DNA of 64,000 nt from the NCBI GenBank assembly GCA_963725255.1, contig CAVRXV010000011.1:99846-163845 (forward strand). Direction: 5' to 3'. The position numbers and the translations under genes were made by a program. Source of the stretch: an uncultured Gammaproteobacteria bacterium (GTDB lineage Bacteria > Pseudomonadota > Gammaproteobacteria > JAIEPX01). Below the pieces are notes generated by a model, which was not told the DNA's origin, ran no database searches, and worked only from the letters and a program-made list of their open reading frames with translations. Position 1 is the stretch's first letter. Every line of letters begins with the position of its first letter. Shown here piece after piece: positions 19,122-59,643 of this stretch.

Positions 19122-19215
19122 GGCGTCGTGTCTTGAGTTGTGAGGGGTTTCGCTAATTAGGCCTCTTATTTAGTCATTTCACCTAGAGAACTATTAGAGT
19201 TCCATAAGAGTTTTT
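19122..19215 (+). repeat. Dispersed repeat family A, copy 1 (29-bp core plus about 65-bp diverged extension)
   Basis: GGCGTCGTGTCTTGAGTTGTGAGGGGTTT...; extension alignable by eye to the copies at 22940 and 26399. Confidence 0.9.
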
Positions 19216-19230
19216 AGAGCAAAGGGCAAA

Positions 19231-19282
19231 GGTGTCAGATCTAATATTAACACCTGCTTTCACTGATCTTAGATCTGACACC
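19231..19282. repeat. REP-like palindrome
   Basis: GGTGTCAGATCTAA / TTAGATCTGACACC, 14-bp perfect arms, 24-nt loop. Confidence 0.8.
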
Positions 19283-19300
19283 TCAGTCATAGTTACCATT

Positions 19301-55934: not shown

Positions 55935-58900
55935 ATGCAGAACAAGCAGACCAATGATCAATCTAAAATAGAGGCGATTAAAATCAATGCATCGTTAGAT
56001 GAATGTTTAAATATTCCTTCAGAGCGATCTGCATCACCTTGCTTGTTCGAACTTGAATTCAGACTATCTCTGGAAGCAGACAAATTTTTTAAAAAATTAC
56101 AAAAAATTCTCCCCTTTGCAGACACTGAATATCCTCAGCTTAGCAATAACAAAGTCACATTAACCAACGAGCAATTTTATTGTTTACAGATCAATCTGAT
56201 GCAAGAAAGTGGTGAGCTTCGGTGGAAATTTCTAAGTGATAACTATTTAATGAAGACTTTACGAGCTGATCAGCATGATTTCACTCACTCATTCAAATTA
56301 GGACTGATTCCAGGTAAAAATGGTCGCCGATATAATAATTTACGACCCAAACCGCGTAGTGAATACGTGATGACATCCGAAGGTGACATAGTTGCAAGAG
56401 TAGACAAAAAACCTCGATATACACCTGATCAAAAGAAAGAATTTTCACAAATTCAATCAAATACTTTTCTTGATGAAAAATTATTATCTGAGGCATTTGG
56501 ATTTTCTAAAAAAAGAAACCGTAAATTGTATGGCTTGTTAACTCACATGAACGATGCATTATTAAGCCGATTATTAATAAGAGATTGTGGCACTCTCAGT
56601 CGCCCTTTTGATTTCAGTAATAGCAAGGACGCTGAGTATAGCGGAATGCGTCAGAAATCCTCTTCAAAGCCTCATTGTTATCCACCTTCAAAATTGACTG
56701 AATTCAAACAACATAATTTAGAATTACGACATTCAATCCGAGGAACCAATGAAGTACTGGCACGCATACGATTTAATCCGTATAGAAGTTTAGTCGTAAT
56801 CTGTTCAGATACTCTAGAAACACGATTATTGGCAGAGTATTTCGCTCGAGAATTGATGGAAGAGTTTCGAGTATATGCCAATGCAAATGGTTTATCCCTT
56901 AATCCAGAATTTCGAATTCCTATTGTATATTATCTACCGACTACATCTCATCTTCCACGCAACTTATTAACTTATAGACCACCCTTGCGGTTCTATACTG
57001 AGAAAATGAAATTAGCAGATAAAACTACGTGTCAAAGACTTTATAAAAACCCACAATTGAGGGCCGAGAAATTTAGTCATAACGATTATGAATTTCTACT
57101 TGGATTACCTGAAATAACACCACAAATTCTTCTTGATGAAACGACACCTTCAGGCAGGCCTCTCGCGCTTGAGATGATATCAAATTTTCATACTCGAATG
57201 TTAAGTCGACTATTGAGGTCCATTAATAATCCTTCGGATAATACACTCGCTGAAGCCGTATTTGATGAGTTGATTAAATGTGGCAAGATACAAAAAGATG
57301 ATTCCATAATTGCTAAACTGATCGAAGTGGAAGATTTTGTTCTTGCAACATTACTGATAGATAAAACAAAAACAGATATAAAGACATTATTGTCTGTAAG
57401 TAATGATTCTTCAAGTTGTAATGCTGTTTCATTAACTGAGCATTTGCAAACTAACGGAAATGCAAGACAGCTCAAATTCATAGGACTGAAAGATATTGTA
57501 GATCAAAATGCCCTGAATTACACTTGGACTCTCAAGAAATTATGTTTAAAAGAATTTCCATCAGAATGCAGAGAATTATTAGGGCAGTTATTATACAATG
57601 CTTGTGGTTATAAAGAAAATAAGAAACAAGCAGAAGTCAAGTTTTTACTAGAACACAGTGCCGACAAAACTGTCCAGGTAGATGGTTATACACCCATTAT
57701 GATAGCGGCCGATATTCAAGATTGGCTAACCGTTTCAATGTTTGCTCAGTATGAGACAGACCCCGAGGATAAAGCCTGCTATGGCTATGCCTTGTTAATC
57801 GCTTTAAAAAATCAACAAAAAACGTTGGCTGAATCACTCATCAAAGCAGGCGCTAAAGCTCTGTGGCGTAAGTCGTTACCTGGGTTTGATTTAATCTCAA
57901 CGTTATATTTTGCAGTGCTGTATGATTATTGCGATCTGCTGCCAAAATTATTGGCGCATGAAAAAACCAGTGCTGAAGGTTTTTATTCTAGAGCCTTTTA
58001 TGCAAGATATTTTGCAATCGCTCGCAATAACCATCCAGCAGTCTCCGTGTTAAATGAAGCATTATCTGACACTCTCACTGTAATATCGTTTGAAAATGAG
58101 AGCAGTCTGCGTGAATGCCTATCAGATGCATTTAAGCTTGAAGGAATTAAGCTTTTTATATTCCGTTTAAAAGAAATATTAAGAAGCTCGGTCAAATCAA
58201 AAGCAGAACAAAAATATTACCTATCACTGGTTAAAAATTGGTTTGATTCTGAATTAGTCGGTACTTTAGACATTGAAATATTGGATTTAATCTTTGATTT
58301 TGAGGGAATAGTGATTTATGAAGCATTTCTTCAATTTATCATTCAAATTAATGATTCCAACCTTGATGAGATATTTTCGAAATTAATTGACATGGCTCAA
58401 GAAGATAATTTCATCTATATCAATACAATAATTGAAAGCATTTTCCAGCGTTTCGGGAAACAGCTTTGCATCGACAAACTCGACAAAGCATTTAATATCA
58501 AGTTTAGTGCTTGTACATATTCAAAATCAGTATTCTTCATAAAGCTTGGAACTGCTATATTTTATGACTCTAATGACAATTCATCACGAACAAGGCACGT
58601 TCTTTTCACAGATATTGCCAAAAATGAAGATCATGAAGTTATTTTTAATCTATTAGATAATCCGAGAAACAGTAAACATATTAAGGATGATTTAATTTAC
58701 TATCTGATTTCAGGCTATAAAAACTACAATATAAGATCTCTGATGGATCATTATCCCGTTGAAATTACACGCTATCTATTTGAGACAGCACTTTTTTGTT
58801 CAAAAGAAGAAGCTTTATCTTATTTTATTGAGGTAATCTTAGAATATCCAAATTATAAAATAAACAAGTATGACCCTTTACTGCAATTGTGGGCTTATCG

Positions 58901-59477
58901 AGAAAGATGCTCCTCAGGGTTAATCAACAAATTTATTTTAGCGTGCGGCACAACGTATATTAGACATTTAAGTATTATGTGTATGTTAGACTATATGGAA
59001 TCAGCAACTGCATTCAACTGGAGTGAATTAGAAAAGCGTTTTTCTAATATCTTCAAAAGAAACATCAGGATTGCACCCTATGATAGCCCTGCATTAGAAA
59101 ATCGCCACGGTTCGATTAGTCCCCACTATTATGTCATTAAGGACCATCAATCTTATCTAGCGGTATTCACAGTGTTAAACAATTACTTTACAAACAAGGA
59201 TATTTTACCTTCTCCTGAAGTCATCAATAAAACATTCTATACTTTATTGAGTGAATTTCGCCAACGCGTAAATCAACCAAGAGCACTCACCTTTTTTAAA
59301 TCTGATAGAACAGTAAAAGAATTTGAGAAGAAAATGTTCGATTTTCTTAGCTCAACGGAAGAGAGATTATCCGCTTTCGAACCTAATGTTTTCGATTTGG
59401 ACAGTAATCTTTTTAAAGCTAATGAACCCACGTCTGTTGACTATCTAGATGTTTATCAAATAATAGGATTATATTAG
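55935..59477 (+). CDS. Hypothetical 1180-aa protein with central ankyrin-like repeats; probable effector
   Basis: Intact ORF; ankyrin-like GYTPIMIAAD and GYALLIALKNQQKTLAESLIKAGA; N-terminal domain unassigned. Confidence 0.8.
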   Translation: MQNKQTNDQSKIEAIKINASLDECLNIPSERSASPCLFELEFRLSLEADKFFKKLQKILPFADTEYPQLSNNKVTLTNEQFYCLQINLMQESGELRWKFLSDNYLMKTLRADQHDFTHSFKLGLIPGKNGRRYNNLRPKPRSEYVMTSEGDIVARVDKKPRYTPDQKKEFSQIQSNTFLDEKLLSEAFGFSKKRNRKLYGLLTHMNDALLSRLLIRDCGTLSRPFDFSNSKDAEYSGMRQKSSSKPHCYPPSKLTEFKQHNLELRHSIRGTNEVLARIRFNPYRSLVVICSDTLETRLLAEYFARELMEEFRVYANANGLSLNPEFRIPIVYYLPTTSHLPRNLLTYRPPLRFYTEKMKLADKTTCQRLYKNPQLRAEKFSHNDYEFLLGLPEITPQILLDETTPSGRPLALEMISNFHTRMLSRLLRSINNPSDNTLAEAVFDELIKCGKIQKDDSIIAKLIEVEDFVLATLLIDKTKTDIKTLLSVSNDSSSCNAVSLTEHLQTNGNARQLKFIGLKDIVDQNALNYTWTLKKLCLKEFPSECRELLGQLLYNACGYKENKKQAEVKFLLEHSADKTVQVDGYTPIMIAADIQDWLTVSMFAQYETDPEDKACYGYALLIALKNQQKTLAESLIKAGAKALWRKSLPGFDLISTLYFAVLYDYCDLLPKLLAHEKTSAEGFYSRAFYARYFAIARNNHPAVSVLNEALSDTLTVISFENESSLRECLSDAFKLEGIKLFIFRLKEILRSSVKSKAEQKYYLSLVKNWFDSELVGTLDIEILDLIFDFEGIVIYEAFLQFIIQINDSNLDEIFSKLIDMAQEDNFIYINTIIESIFQRFGKQLCIDKLDKAFNIKFSACTYSKSVFFIKLGTAIFYDSNDNSSRTRHVLFTDIAKNEDHEVIFNLLDNPRNSKHIKDDLIYYLISGYKNYNIRSLMDHYPVEITRYLFETALFCSKEEALSYFIEVILEYPNYKINKYDPLLQLWAYRERCSSGLINKFILACGTTYIRHLSIMCMLDYMESATAFNWSELEKRFSNIFKRNIRIAPYDSPALENRHGSISPHYYVIKDHQSYLAVFTVLNNYFTNKDILPSPEVINKTFYTLLSEFRQRVNQPRALTFFKSDRTVKEFEKKMFDFLSSTEERLSAFEPNVFDLDSNLFKANEPTSVDYLDVYQIIGLY

Positions 59478-59521
59478 ATCAATTGATTAAAAACGAGATG
59501 GGTTAATACTGGTCGAATATT

Positions 59522-59643
59522 AACGAGTTAAATCTGAATAAGCAAATAAATAAAATATTATGCCTAATTATTCAATAATTATATGAAAAAGCGACATCAA
59601 AATTGCAAAACCTCTAACAACTCAAGACGCGACGCCTTTACTG
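59522..59643 (-). repeat. 122-bp direct repeat, copy 2 (family A core at 59608-59636); overlaps the glmM stop codon
   Basis: See copy 1; the last 6 bp (TTACTG) are the glmM 3' end. Confidence 0.95.

Follow-up and report, generated by a model that had tools for sequence, protein, structure and literature searches.

A genus-specific family of short terminal repeats and its probable Y1 transposase partner in uncultured Legionella/Coxiella-like bacteria

The repeat studied here, family A, occurs seven times in a 64,000-nucleotide (nt) stretch of DNA (the window) from an uncultured gammaproteobacterium. Its closest described counterparts are the TIRYTs, genes similar to those of REP-associated tyrosine transposases (RAYTs) with long flanking terminal inverted repeats (TIRs) that often start with GGGGWSAS (Di Nocera et al. 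2013, PMC3733652). TIRs of the corresponding TIRtrons, a class termed 'moderately abundant', can form dispersed families composed of singletons, dimers and clusters (PMC3733652), and the TIRYTs have been equated with subclass 2.1 of TnpA-Y1 (Quentin et al. 2018, PMC6006769). Repetitive extragenic palindromic (REP) sequences, REPINs and their RAYTs are covered by several studies (Nunvar 2010; Bertels & Rainey 2011, PMC3116915; Ton-Hoang/Messing 2012, PMC3479197; Bertels 2017, PMC5581495). QMITE2 of Coxiella burnetii (Wachter et al. 2018, PMC5896051) is a TIR-bearing repeat of 150–190 bp with full-size and small versions, which sits in 3′ untranslated regions and intergenic DNA, overlaps gene ends by a few bases, marks rearrangements between strains and is the near-exclusive target of insertion sequences (ISs) of the IS110/IS1111 family, 10–20 bp from one of its ends.

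The window corresponds to positions 99846-163845 of contig C11 in a 2.8-Mb assembly (18 contigs, 90% complete), hereafter G000, from a monogeneric order of uncultured Legionella/Coxiella-like bacteria. The comparison set comprised six genomes of one genus (G000 to G005), which make up the entire GTDB family and order, a search at order level having added none. The closest relative of G000 is G001 (~87% DNA identity), and the synteny comparison between them used 2.05 Mb of G001 assembled from fetched regions. Gene calls were our own, based on open reading frames (ORFs). We consider it likely that the 29-nt sequence repeated in the window forms the strongly conserved portion of a ~42-nt TIR, and that the genus-specific family to which it belongs is linked to a single RAYT/TIRYT-type HUH/Y1 transposase.

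Anatomy of the repeat family

The genome-wide search proposed in an earlier note on the window, which had listed the seven copies, retrieved 110 ends in G000 with the 29-mer (≤6 mismatches), and 102 matches with a 19-nt core (≤2 mismatches; reversed control, 0). Of the 110 ends, 48 are arranged as 24 inverted pairs, or doublets, with their GGCG tips outward, and the other 62 are singletons, about 5 of which keep a recognisable decayed partner. Twelve doublets measure 217–222 bp and four 239–248 bp; shorter ones span 127–196 bp, and there is also a perfect mini-palindrome of 39 bp. Clusters hold up to 8 ends in 20 kb. When 92 copies were profiled, the sequence was near-invariant over nt 1–29 and less conserved up to ~nt 42, GGCGTCGCGTCTTGAGTTGTGA(G/T)AGGTTT-TGCAAAATCGATG, giving a conserved end of ~42 nt, GGCGTCGCGTCTTGAGTTGTGAGAGGTTTTGCAAAATCGATG. 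As read from the sequence, its tip contains CGTC twice (G-GCGTC-GCGTC). The doublet interiors are AT-rich and homologous to one another solely between neighbouring or segmentally duplicated copies (77–83% identity); blastn on both strands gave this same restricted homology, and an orientation artefact behind the poor interior alignment was thus rejected. Doublet length is constant despite the unrelated interiors, and the two ends of a doublet pair over 29–45 nt, the 39-nt mini-version folding at −23.6 kcal/mol.

The flanks of the ends carried no target-site duplication, the best flank repeat averaging 2.5 nt versus 2.0 nt for non-cognate flank pairs. They are nevertheless biased in composition: 13 of the 92 copies have TAC just outside the tip, versus 1.2 expected (p=2e-10), and G at position −1 was found in 3 copies versus 16.8 expected. 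Twelve ends carry tandem duplications of 4–10 nt of flank plus the first 6–23 nt of the end. Breakpoints recur at nt 6–22, the zone within which a small second family (GGCGTCGCGTTAACCC..., 3 copies) departs from family A. Taken together, the fixed doublet length, the tip duplications and the recurrent breakpoints may indicate that cleavage or joining takes place around nt 7–14 of the end.

Among the tip duplications, units of ~15 nt (8 nt of flank plus GGCGTCG) are repeated up to four times at C7:102849-102925 of G000, and others occur in the same genome at C7:21600-21624, C7:98794-98820, C9:96508-96535 and C17:183435-183458. The second family, GGCGTCGCGTTAACCCTGGATATTGCA..., is ~70 bp long, ends in ...TGACGCC and has only the first 9–10 nt in common with family A. 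It occupies C7:70107, C9:55173 and C11:40015 in G000, as well as C31:555045 in G001, a site taken up in G000 by a family-A doublet of 218 bp (C9:248475). Variant family-A ends (GGYRTCGTRTCTTGAGTT...) adjoin two genes for YhcG-type PDDEXK nucleases (DUF1016) in G000 (C7:105213-106307 and C11:206820-207881); these were considered as candidate transposases and rejected, as they are not transposases.

Family A is a genus-specific family of short non-coding repeats. A scan of public genome contigs with the 19-mer returned two matches, neither extending past the 19-mer, when ~4 chance hits are expected at that size, and a 22-mer scan of public metagenome contigs returned none.

The Y1 gene bracketed by family-A ends

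No transposase or recombinase was found in the window by Pfam analysis of the genes neighbouring the ends, as the earlier note had reported, and its view of the repeats as ends of a non-autonomous element holds in this respect. It had also suggested looking for a full-length element with its enzyme, and such a gene exists elsewhere in G000. An ORF of 325 amino acids (aa) at C7:122339-123313, encoding an HUH/Y1 protein, is bracketed by two family-A doublets (C7:122119-122357 and C7:123397-123614), whose outer ends, at 122119 (+) and 123586-123614 (−), enclose the gene, the inner partners lying at 122329 (−) and 123397 (+). Because this cognate RAYT/TIRYT-type gene sits between such ends in the same genome, the repeat cannot be called undescribed in kind, as the earlier note had it.

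The 325-aa protein matched Pfam Y1_Tnp (E=1.3e-11) and, under the gathering score, Bac_DnaA_C (E=2.4e-4; E=4.3e-6 for a paralogue). Its best NCBIfam model was the REP-associated tyrosine transposase, with 59.6 bits versus 17.5 for IS200. The HUH motif (H60, H62) and the tyrosine motif R118-Y119-IHLNP are invariant in 10 homologues, all from the genus. An AlphaFold2 model (pLDDT 78) had as its top match in the PDB the E. coli RAYT on its REP hairpin (4ER8, E=7.5e-7), followed by the TnpA proteins of ISDra2 and IS608, and the C-terminal tail of the model has the fold of DnaA domain IV (3PVP, 1J1V; TM 0.87, root-mean-square deviation 1.8). This architecture, a Y1 core with a DnaA-domain-IV-like DNA-binding tail, is that of TnpA-Y1 subclass 2.1.

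Inverted ends ≤6 kb apart enclose mostly ordinary genes, and Y1/HUH is the sole gene type bracketed by family-A-type ends in three species. Orthologues (54% identity) occur in G002 (L182) and G004 (L183), both flanked by a co-diverged version of the end, GTCGTCGYATCTTKAGTTGTTAGTACTTT, whereas the best matches in G001, G003 and G005 are paralogues with 41–42% identity. The GTCGTCGYATCTTKAGTTGTTAGTACTTT variant has 73 copies in G002 and 46 in G004, against 10, 6, 0 and 1 in the other genomes. Where the orthologue is present, copies of the own variant thus number 102 (G000), 73 (G002) and 46 (G004); where it is missing, there are 48 (G001), 0 (G003) and 1–3 (G005). The G001 copies are more degenerate, with a mean of 3.06 mismatches versus 2.27 in G000 (p=0.005), and the G000 array that contains the Y1 gene (C7:119270-125555) is replaced by 720 bp in G001. 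This co-occurrence argument draws on six genomes.

Paralogous genes of ~300 aa with the same Y1 and DnaA_C-like parts were observed at C17:339492-340397 in G000 (L189), C3:756-1658 in G001 (L185) and C10:54631-55581 in G005 (L186), each flanked by its own TIRs of 24–35 nt starting with GGGGTC. These TIRs, GGGGTCAG, GGGGTCGG and GGGGTCGT, fit or nearly fit GGGGWSAS. The family-A tip, GGCGTCGC, agrees with six of its eight positions, and the published motif covers the majority, not all, of the class. The TIR of the G000 paralogue (GGGGTCGGATCT / AGATCTGACCCC) resembles another repeat family of the genome, the GGGGTCAGATCT hairpin, which, judging from this resemblance, probably has its own cognate Y1 gene.

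The ends are in turn the target of another mobile element. An IS110-family element of 1.4 kb (Pfam DEDD_Tnp_IS110 plus Transposase_20) has five copies in G000, at C5:390013-391574, C1:237217-238778, C7:8-2821, C8:151154-153971 and C17:179458-182275, three of them with a nested IS3-family element of 1.27 kb. All five are inserted after nt 8 of a family-A end, in the configuration GGCGTCGC|IS|CGCGTCTTGAG, the target being GGCGTCGC|GTCTTG. Rfam 15 (E≤0.1) gave no match on an IS110 copy or the Y1 array, indicating that none of the described RNA families, those of bridge RNAs included, applies.

Several observations weigh against the association of family A with this one enzyme. No interior is common to any two dispersed doublets, so that there is no trace of recent whole-doublet copy-and-paste. 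Unlike those of classical REPs and REPINs, the interiors are not self-complementary beyond chance, and a REPIN-like long hairpin was rejected on this ground. A single 44-nt end has no hairpin of its own either (minimum free energy of the DNA fold −0.8 and 0 kcal/mol, z +1.6 and +1.8, for the two strands). IS200/IS605 elements have a lagging-strand bias, and the orientation of the singletons was unbiased with respect to GC skew (Fisher p=1.0). The 325-aa protein fails the cut-off of the NCBIfam RAYT model NF047646 (59.6 versus 80), G001 retains its 48 copies without an orthologue, and each genome has 3–10 paralogous Y1 genes that are possibly cross-acting.

The copies in the window and the variable DNA around them

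The seven window copies (≤3 mismatches) compare with 0.00 expected from 100 shuffles, and all seven lie between long ORFs. In these respects, and in the minus-strand coordinates given for the high (GGCG) side of each copy, the earlier note was accurate. Alignment of the copies with their flanks, like the 92-copy profile, bore out the sharp GGCG edge it described, followed by divergence except in the three plus-strand copies at 19–26 kb and in the pair at 55839 and 59636, nearly identical over ~110 nt. The trio shares ~70 nt more, including the small covarying hairpin (GAACT-N5-AGTTC or TAACT-N5-AGTTA) that had been noted; this inner module (19151..19222, +; also 22969-23040 and 26428-26500) occurs at these three places in the whole genome and nowhere beyond them.

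The singleton at 19122..19150 (+) lies 75 nt past the stop of a caspase-like gene, beyond its terminator, in a 192-bp stretch missing from G001. Directly inside it, at 19215-19270, stands the GGTGTCAGATCT...AGATCTGACACC hairpin of another repeat family, and the hairpin and the singleton together make up this 192-bp stretch. The singleton at 22940..22968 (+) has its GGCG tip 73 nt upstream of the start of a SET-domain gene (22867) and is also present in G001, where homology ceases 5 nt inside the inner edge. That at 26399..26427 (+), between the start of a PhzF-like gene and the end of a Cu/Zn-SOD gene, corresponds in G001 to a locus that lacks the ~40-nt end and keeps both flanks. A fourth singleton (46465..46493, −) is 13 nt from the stop (46507) of a 1535-aa Ank-patatin gene, with a degenerate copy at this locus in G001 and a GGGGTCAGATCT-type hairpin in its place in G004. 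The distances to genes that the earlier note had given, among them these 13 nt and the 1 nt that separates the end at 59608..59636 (−) from the stop (59638) of its "glmM", a PGM/PMM-family gene according to Pfam, agreed with ours; one assignment did not, since it is an MFS transporter that adjoins 19122, on the inner side, and the SET-domain gene belongs upstream of 22940.

The remaining copies delimit larger units. Inverted ends at 51220..51248 (+), 106 nt upstream of the Ank-patatin ORF start, and 55811..55839 (−), whose GGCG tip is 96 nt upstream of a gene of 1180 aa, bound with outward tips a 4.6-kb segment (51220..55839) that carries argH, argG, argF and argR. This argH-argG-argF operon with its divergent argR (51249-55810) is an accessory trait in the genus: by DNA search, G003 alone among the five relatives has the unit (72% identity), and G001, G002, G004 and G005 lack it. 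The 1180-aa gene, which contains Ank repeats, is bracketed by direct repeats of 122 bp (2 differences) at 55725..55846 and 59522..59643, each comprising an end, ~86 nt of interior and 7 nt of outside flank (TTTACTG), the latter including, in the right copy, the stop codon of the glmM-like gene. Of the end next to this stop G001 retains just the outer 12 nt. At the gathering threshold, Rfam detected tRNAs and nothing else in the window.

Several gene gains and losses between species are bounded by ends, as emerged from the comparison of loci in sister genomes that the earlier note had called for. Between the Ank-patatin and glmM-like genes, G000 has the end-bounded 4.6-kb arg unit followed by the 1180-aa gene between its direct repeats, G001 a remnant of ~128 bp, G002 a plain doublet plus 1.7 kb, and G004 the 1180-aa gene alone, without ends. 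The arg segment is not at this locus in G001, G002 or G004, the doublet that stands there in G002 being ~245 bp long. As to the 1180-aa gene itself, it occupies the same place in G004 without any ends and is missing from G001. Elsewhere, the G001 counterparts of two G000 doublets contain extra DNA within the doublet, 1.4 kb in one case and 5.1 kb in the other. These G001 inserts of 1.4–5 kb occupy what in G000 is a plain doublet of 220–250 bp; the left end is retained with some of the interior, and of the right end only the outer 7–12 nt.

The link of the ends to variable DNA is real but modest. Only 8% of the copies fall in intergenic DNA of the syntenic core, versus 24% of random intergenic 29-mers (G000 against G001), and 24.5% of ends lie ≤60 bp from the edge of a synteny block, versus 15.3% of random sites (chi-square p=1.2e-4); the ends occupy 49 of 147 20-kb bins versus 77 expected. 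Depletion in the core and enrichment at synteny breaks thus bear out one half of the earlier proposal, that the repeats sit at the borders of accessory or effector genes. Its other half, effector content, does not stand: the unit at 51220-55839 carries arginine-biosynthesis genes, and the cargo between ends in G000 is mixed, with argHGF-argR, HipBA, HEPN, SDR and MerR proteins, carbonic anhydrase and a beta-lactamase-fold protein, in addition to AAA ATPases, a Fic protein, ispA-xseB and large orphan proteins.

With respect to genes, the tips face stops 61 times (median 8 nt) and starts 49 times (median 94 nt), and for the inner sides the counts are 33 starts and 29 stops; doublets occur in convergent, divergent and co-directional gaps at roughly genomic proportions. 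Seventeen ORFs stop inside ends, at TGA codons located at nt 13–15 and 20–22 in two frames. Ordinary spacers in G000 are short after stops (median 65 nt in convergent and 44 nt in co-directional gaps), which explains much of the closeness of the ends to gene ends. Stop-codon targeting, which could be read from the tight apposition to stops, was therefore largely discounted.

Competing explanations and relation to known systems

TIRs of 29–42 bp on non-coding, intergenic and clustered units of 130–470 bp would also suit classical miniature inverted-repeat transposable elements (MITEs), that is, internally deleted derivatives of DDE-type ISs moved in trans by double-stranded cut-and-paste. This origin is very unlikely: target-site duplications are missing, the interiors are unrelated between copies, and no DDE gene lies between or beside inverted ends (pairs ≤6 kb apart and the ORFs of the arrays were inspected; the DDE Pfam families were not searched genome-wide). 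The arrays contain only IS3- and IS110-family transposases, which have other ends, and the sole gene bracketed in three species is Y1/HUH. A dedicated site-specific recombinase, for which the inverted pairs would be invertible switches of ~160 bp (invertons) and the direct pairs excisable gene cassettes, could account for ends far more conserved than their interiors, for the fixed spacing of 217–222 bp, for the 122-bp direct repeats around the 1180-aa gene and for the differing cargo at the same doublet locus in four species. It would also suit a deletion or insertion exactly between two direct ends, which in G000 (C17:185057 and 187442) have 2.4 kb between them and in G001 are represented by a single end. 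However, one tyrosine recombinase was found genome-wide (C9:223995-225248), away from the arrays (serine recombinases were not searched), five of five pairs of related doublets have their interiors in the same orientation, the arrays are of mixed orientation, and the conserved partner is the Y1 gene, not a recombinase. Moreover, the 122-bp repeat extends 7 nt into the outside flank and includes the glmM stop codon there, a layout that indicates duplication or homologous recombination and not a defined crossover site. We thus regard such an enzyme as improbable, and the dedicated system for shuffling cassettes that the earlier note had envisaged is not borne out. The recombinase was the single match to Pfam PF00589 in the whole of G000, with none XerC/XerD-like, which may reflect the 90% completeness, the search filter or a real absence.

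The ends might instead be regulatory or structural sites selected by the host, such as boxes for transcription factors or nucleoid proteins, terminators or RNA-stability elements, that merely resemble mobile DNA. Their high conservation within G000 would agree with this, as would the TGA stops that they provide in two frames, with 17 ORFs ending inside, and a near-consensus sigma-70 promoter (TTGACA-17-TACTAT) read from the alignment 10 nt outside the 22940 tip and directed at the SET-domain gene. Yet the ends follow no orientation rule relative to genes, facing starts and stops with either side and occurring as doublets in all gap types, orthologous ends diverge about as much as their flanks (2–3 differences per 29 nt between G000 and G001), and two species of the genus lack the family. 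In any case, some copying process would be required to place an identical 29-mer at 100 loci, and we consider host selection highly improbable as the origin of the family. A sigma-54 or ECF (extracytoplasmic function) promoter in the tip was rejected by eye on account of wrong spacing.

The association with the Y1 gene suggests a single-strand mechanism, by analogy with IS200/IS605 and the E. coli TnpA-REP system. The enzyme would spread and maintain the ends by recognising them on single-stranded DNA, where those of a doublet would pair into a stem of 29–45 bp, and by cutting and rejoining next to the GGCG tip, with no target duplication and with a preference for a W-A-H flank (most commonly TAC). 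The window copies would be passive products, singleton ends being unable to move alone. About 100 near-identical sequences of 30–40 bp in tolerant intergenic DNA would then also be places where DNA breaks and rejoins in deletions, insertions and rearrangements, while offering the IS110-family element its specific target, and this would explain why ends stand at the borders of variable gene blocks. A bolder version, which we find rather unlikely, is that the enzyme, or breakage and joining near nt 7–14, does more, with doublets as landing pads and end-bounded gene segments as cassettes mobilisable in trans; the 4.6-kb arg unit, the HipBA and SDR units and the 1.4–5-kb G001 inserts in doublets would be examples. 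A domesticated single-strand transposase would, in that case, drive accessory-gene turnover in a host-associated lineage.

The association of family A with a Y1 enzyme gives a conspicuous repeat of an uncultured Legionella/Coxiella-like lineage a concrete partner gene and ties it to the TIRYTs, a little-studied branch of the RAYT-like enzymes on which, to our knowledge, no biochemistry exists. The six genomes offer a compact natural test set for repeat maintenance, with co-divergence, decay after enzyme loss and an IS110-family element locked on one position. For annotation, the ends mark variable regions and rewritten gene 3′ ends and should not be taken as evidence of neighbouring effector cassettes.

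Among described systems, mobile insertion cassettes (MICs) and integron cassettes resemble family A in their transposase-less gene segments between element ends and in genes that end flush against the repeat. In contrast with MICs, no DDE partner was found and cargo gain and loss are inferred from species comparisons; in contrast with integrons, no IntI integrase with a one-orientation attI/attC array was found (the one PF00589 match is off-array, and the interiors are not palindromic). QMITE2, compared by description only, is likewise a small TIR-bearing intergenic repeat that marks rearrangements, and its targeting by IS1111 parallels the insertion of the IS110-family element at one fixed position of family A. 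However, QMITE2 has direct repeats of 7–11 nt and a GTAG REP and no reported cognate transposase, whereas family A lacks the first two and has a Y1 gene. With REP/REPIN-RAYT systems family A has in common a vertically inherited Y1 gene, with a single orthologue per genome and its own repeat on both sides, the co-divergence of repeat and enzyme across species, the decay or disappearance of the repeats where the gene is missing, and an intergenic location near gene 3′ ends, where the repeats can supply stop codons and are targets of IS110-family elements. Unlike REPs and REPINs, the family-A unit is not a palindrome of 20–40 nt and has no GTAG tag; the spacer of its doublets, ~160 bp, is not conserved and exceeds that of REP dimers (usually 20–100 bp), and its Y1 protein is twice as long as the E. 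coli RAYT and falls under the NCBIfam RAYT cut-off.

As for TIRtrons, the tip GGCGTCGC sets family A apart, as do the bracketing of the gene by whole doublets instead of single TIRs, a copy number of ~100 that is high for the class and doublets of fixed length with unrelated interiors. Like TIRtrons and TIRYTs, in turn, it has a RAYT-like Y1/HUH gene with a C-terminal helix-turn-helix of the Bac_DnaA_C type and long TIRs in place of palindromic REPs, its TIRs are dispersed as singletons, dimers and clusters, and its paralogues in the genus carry tips of the GGGGWSAS type. Family A is thus best filed as a genus-specific addition to the class of TIRYT/RAYT-associated repeats, not as an effector-cassette system.

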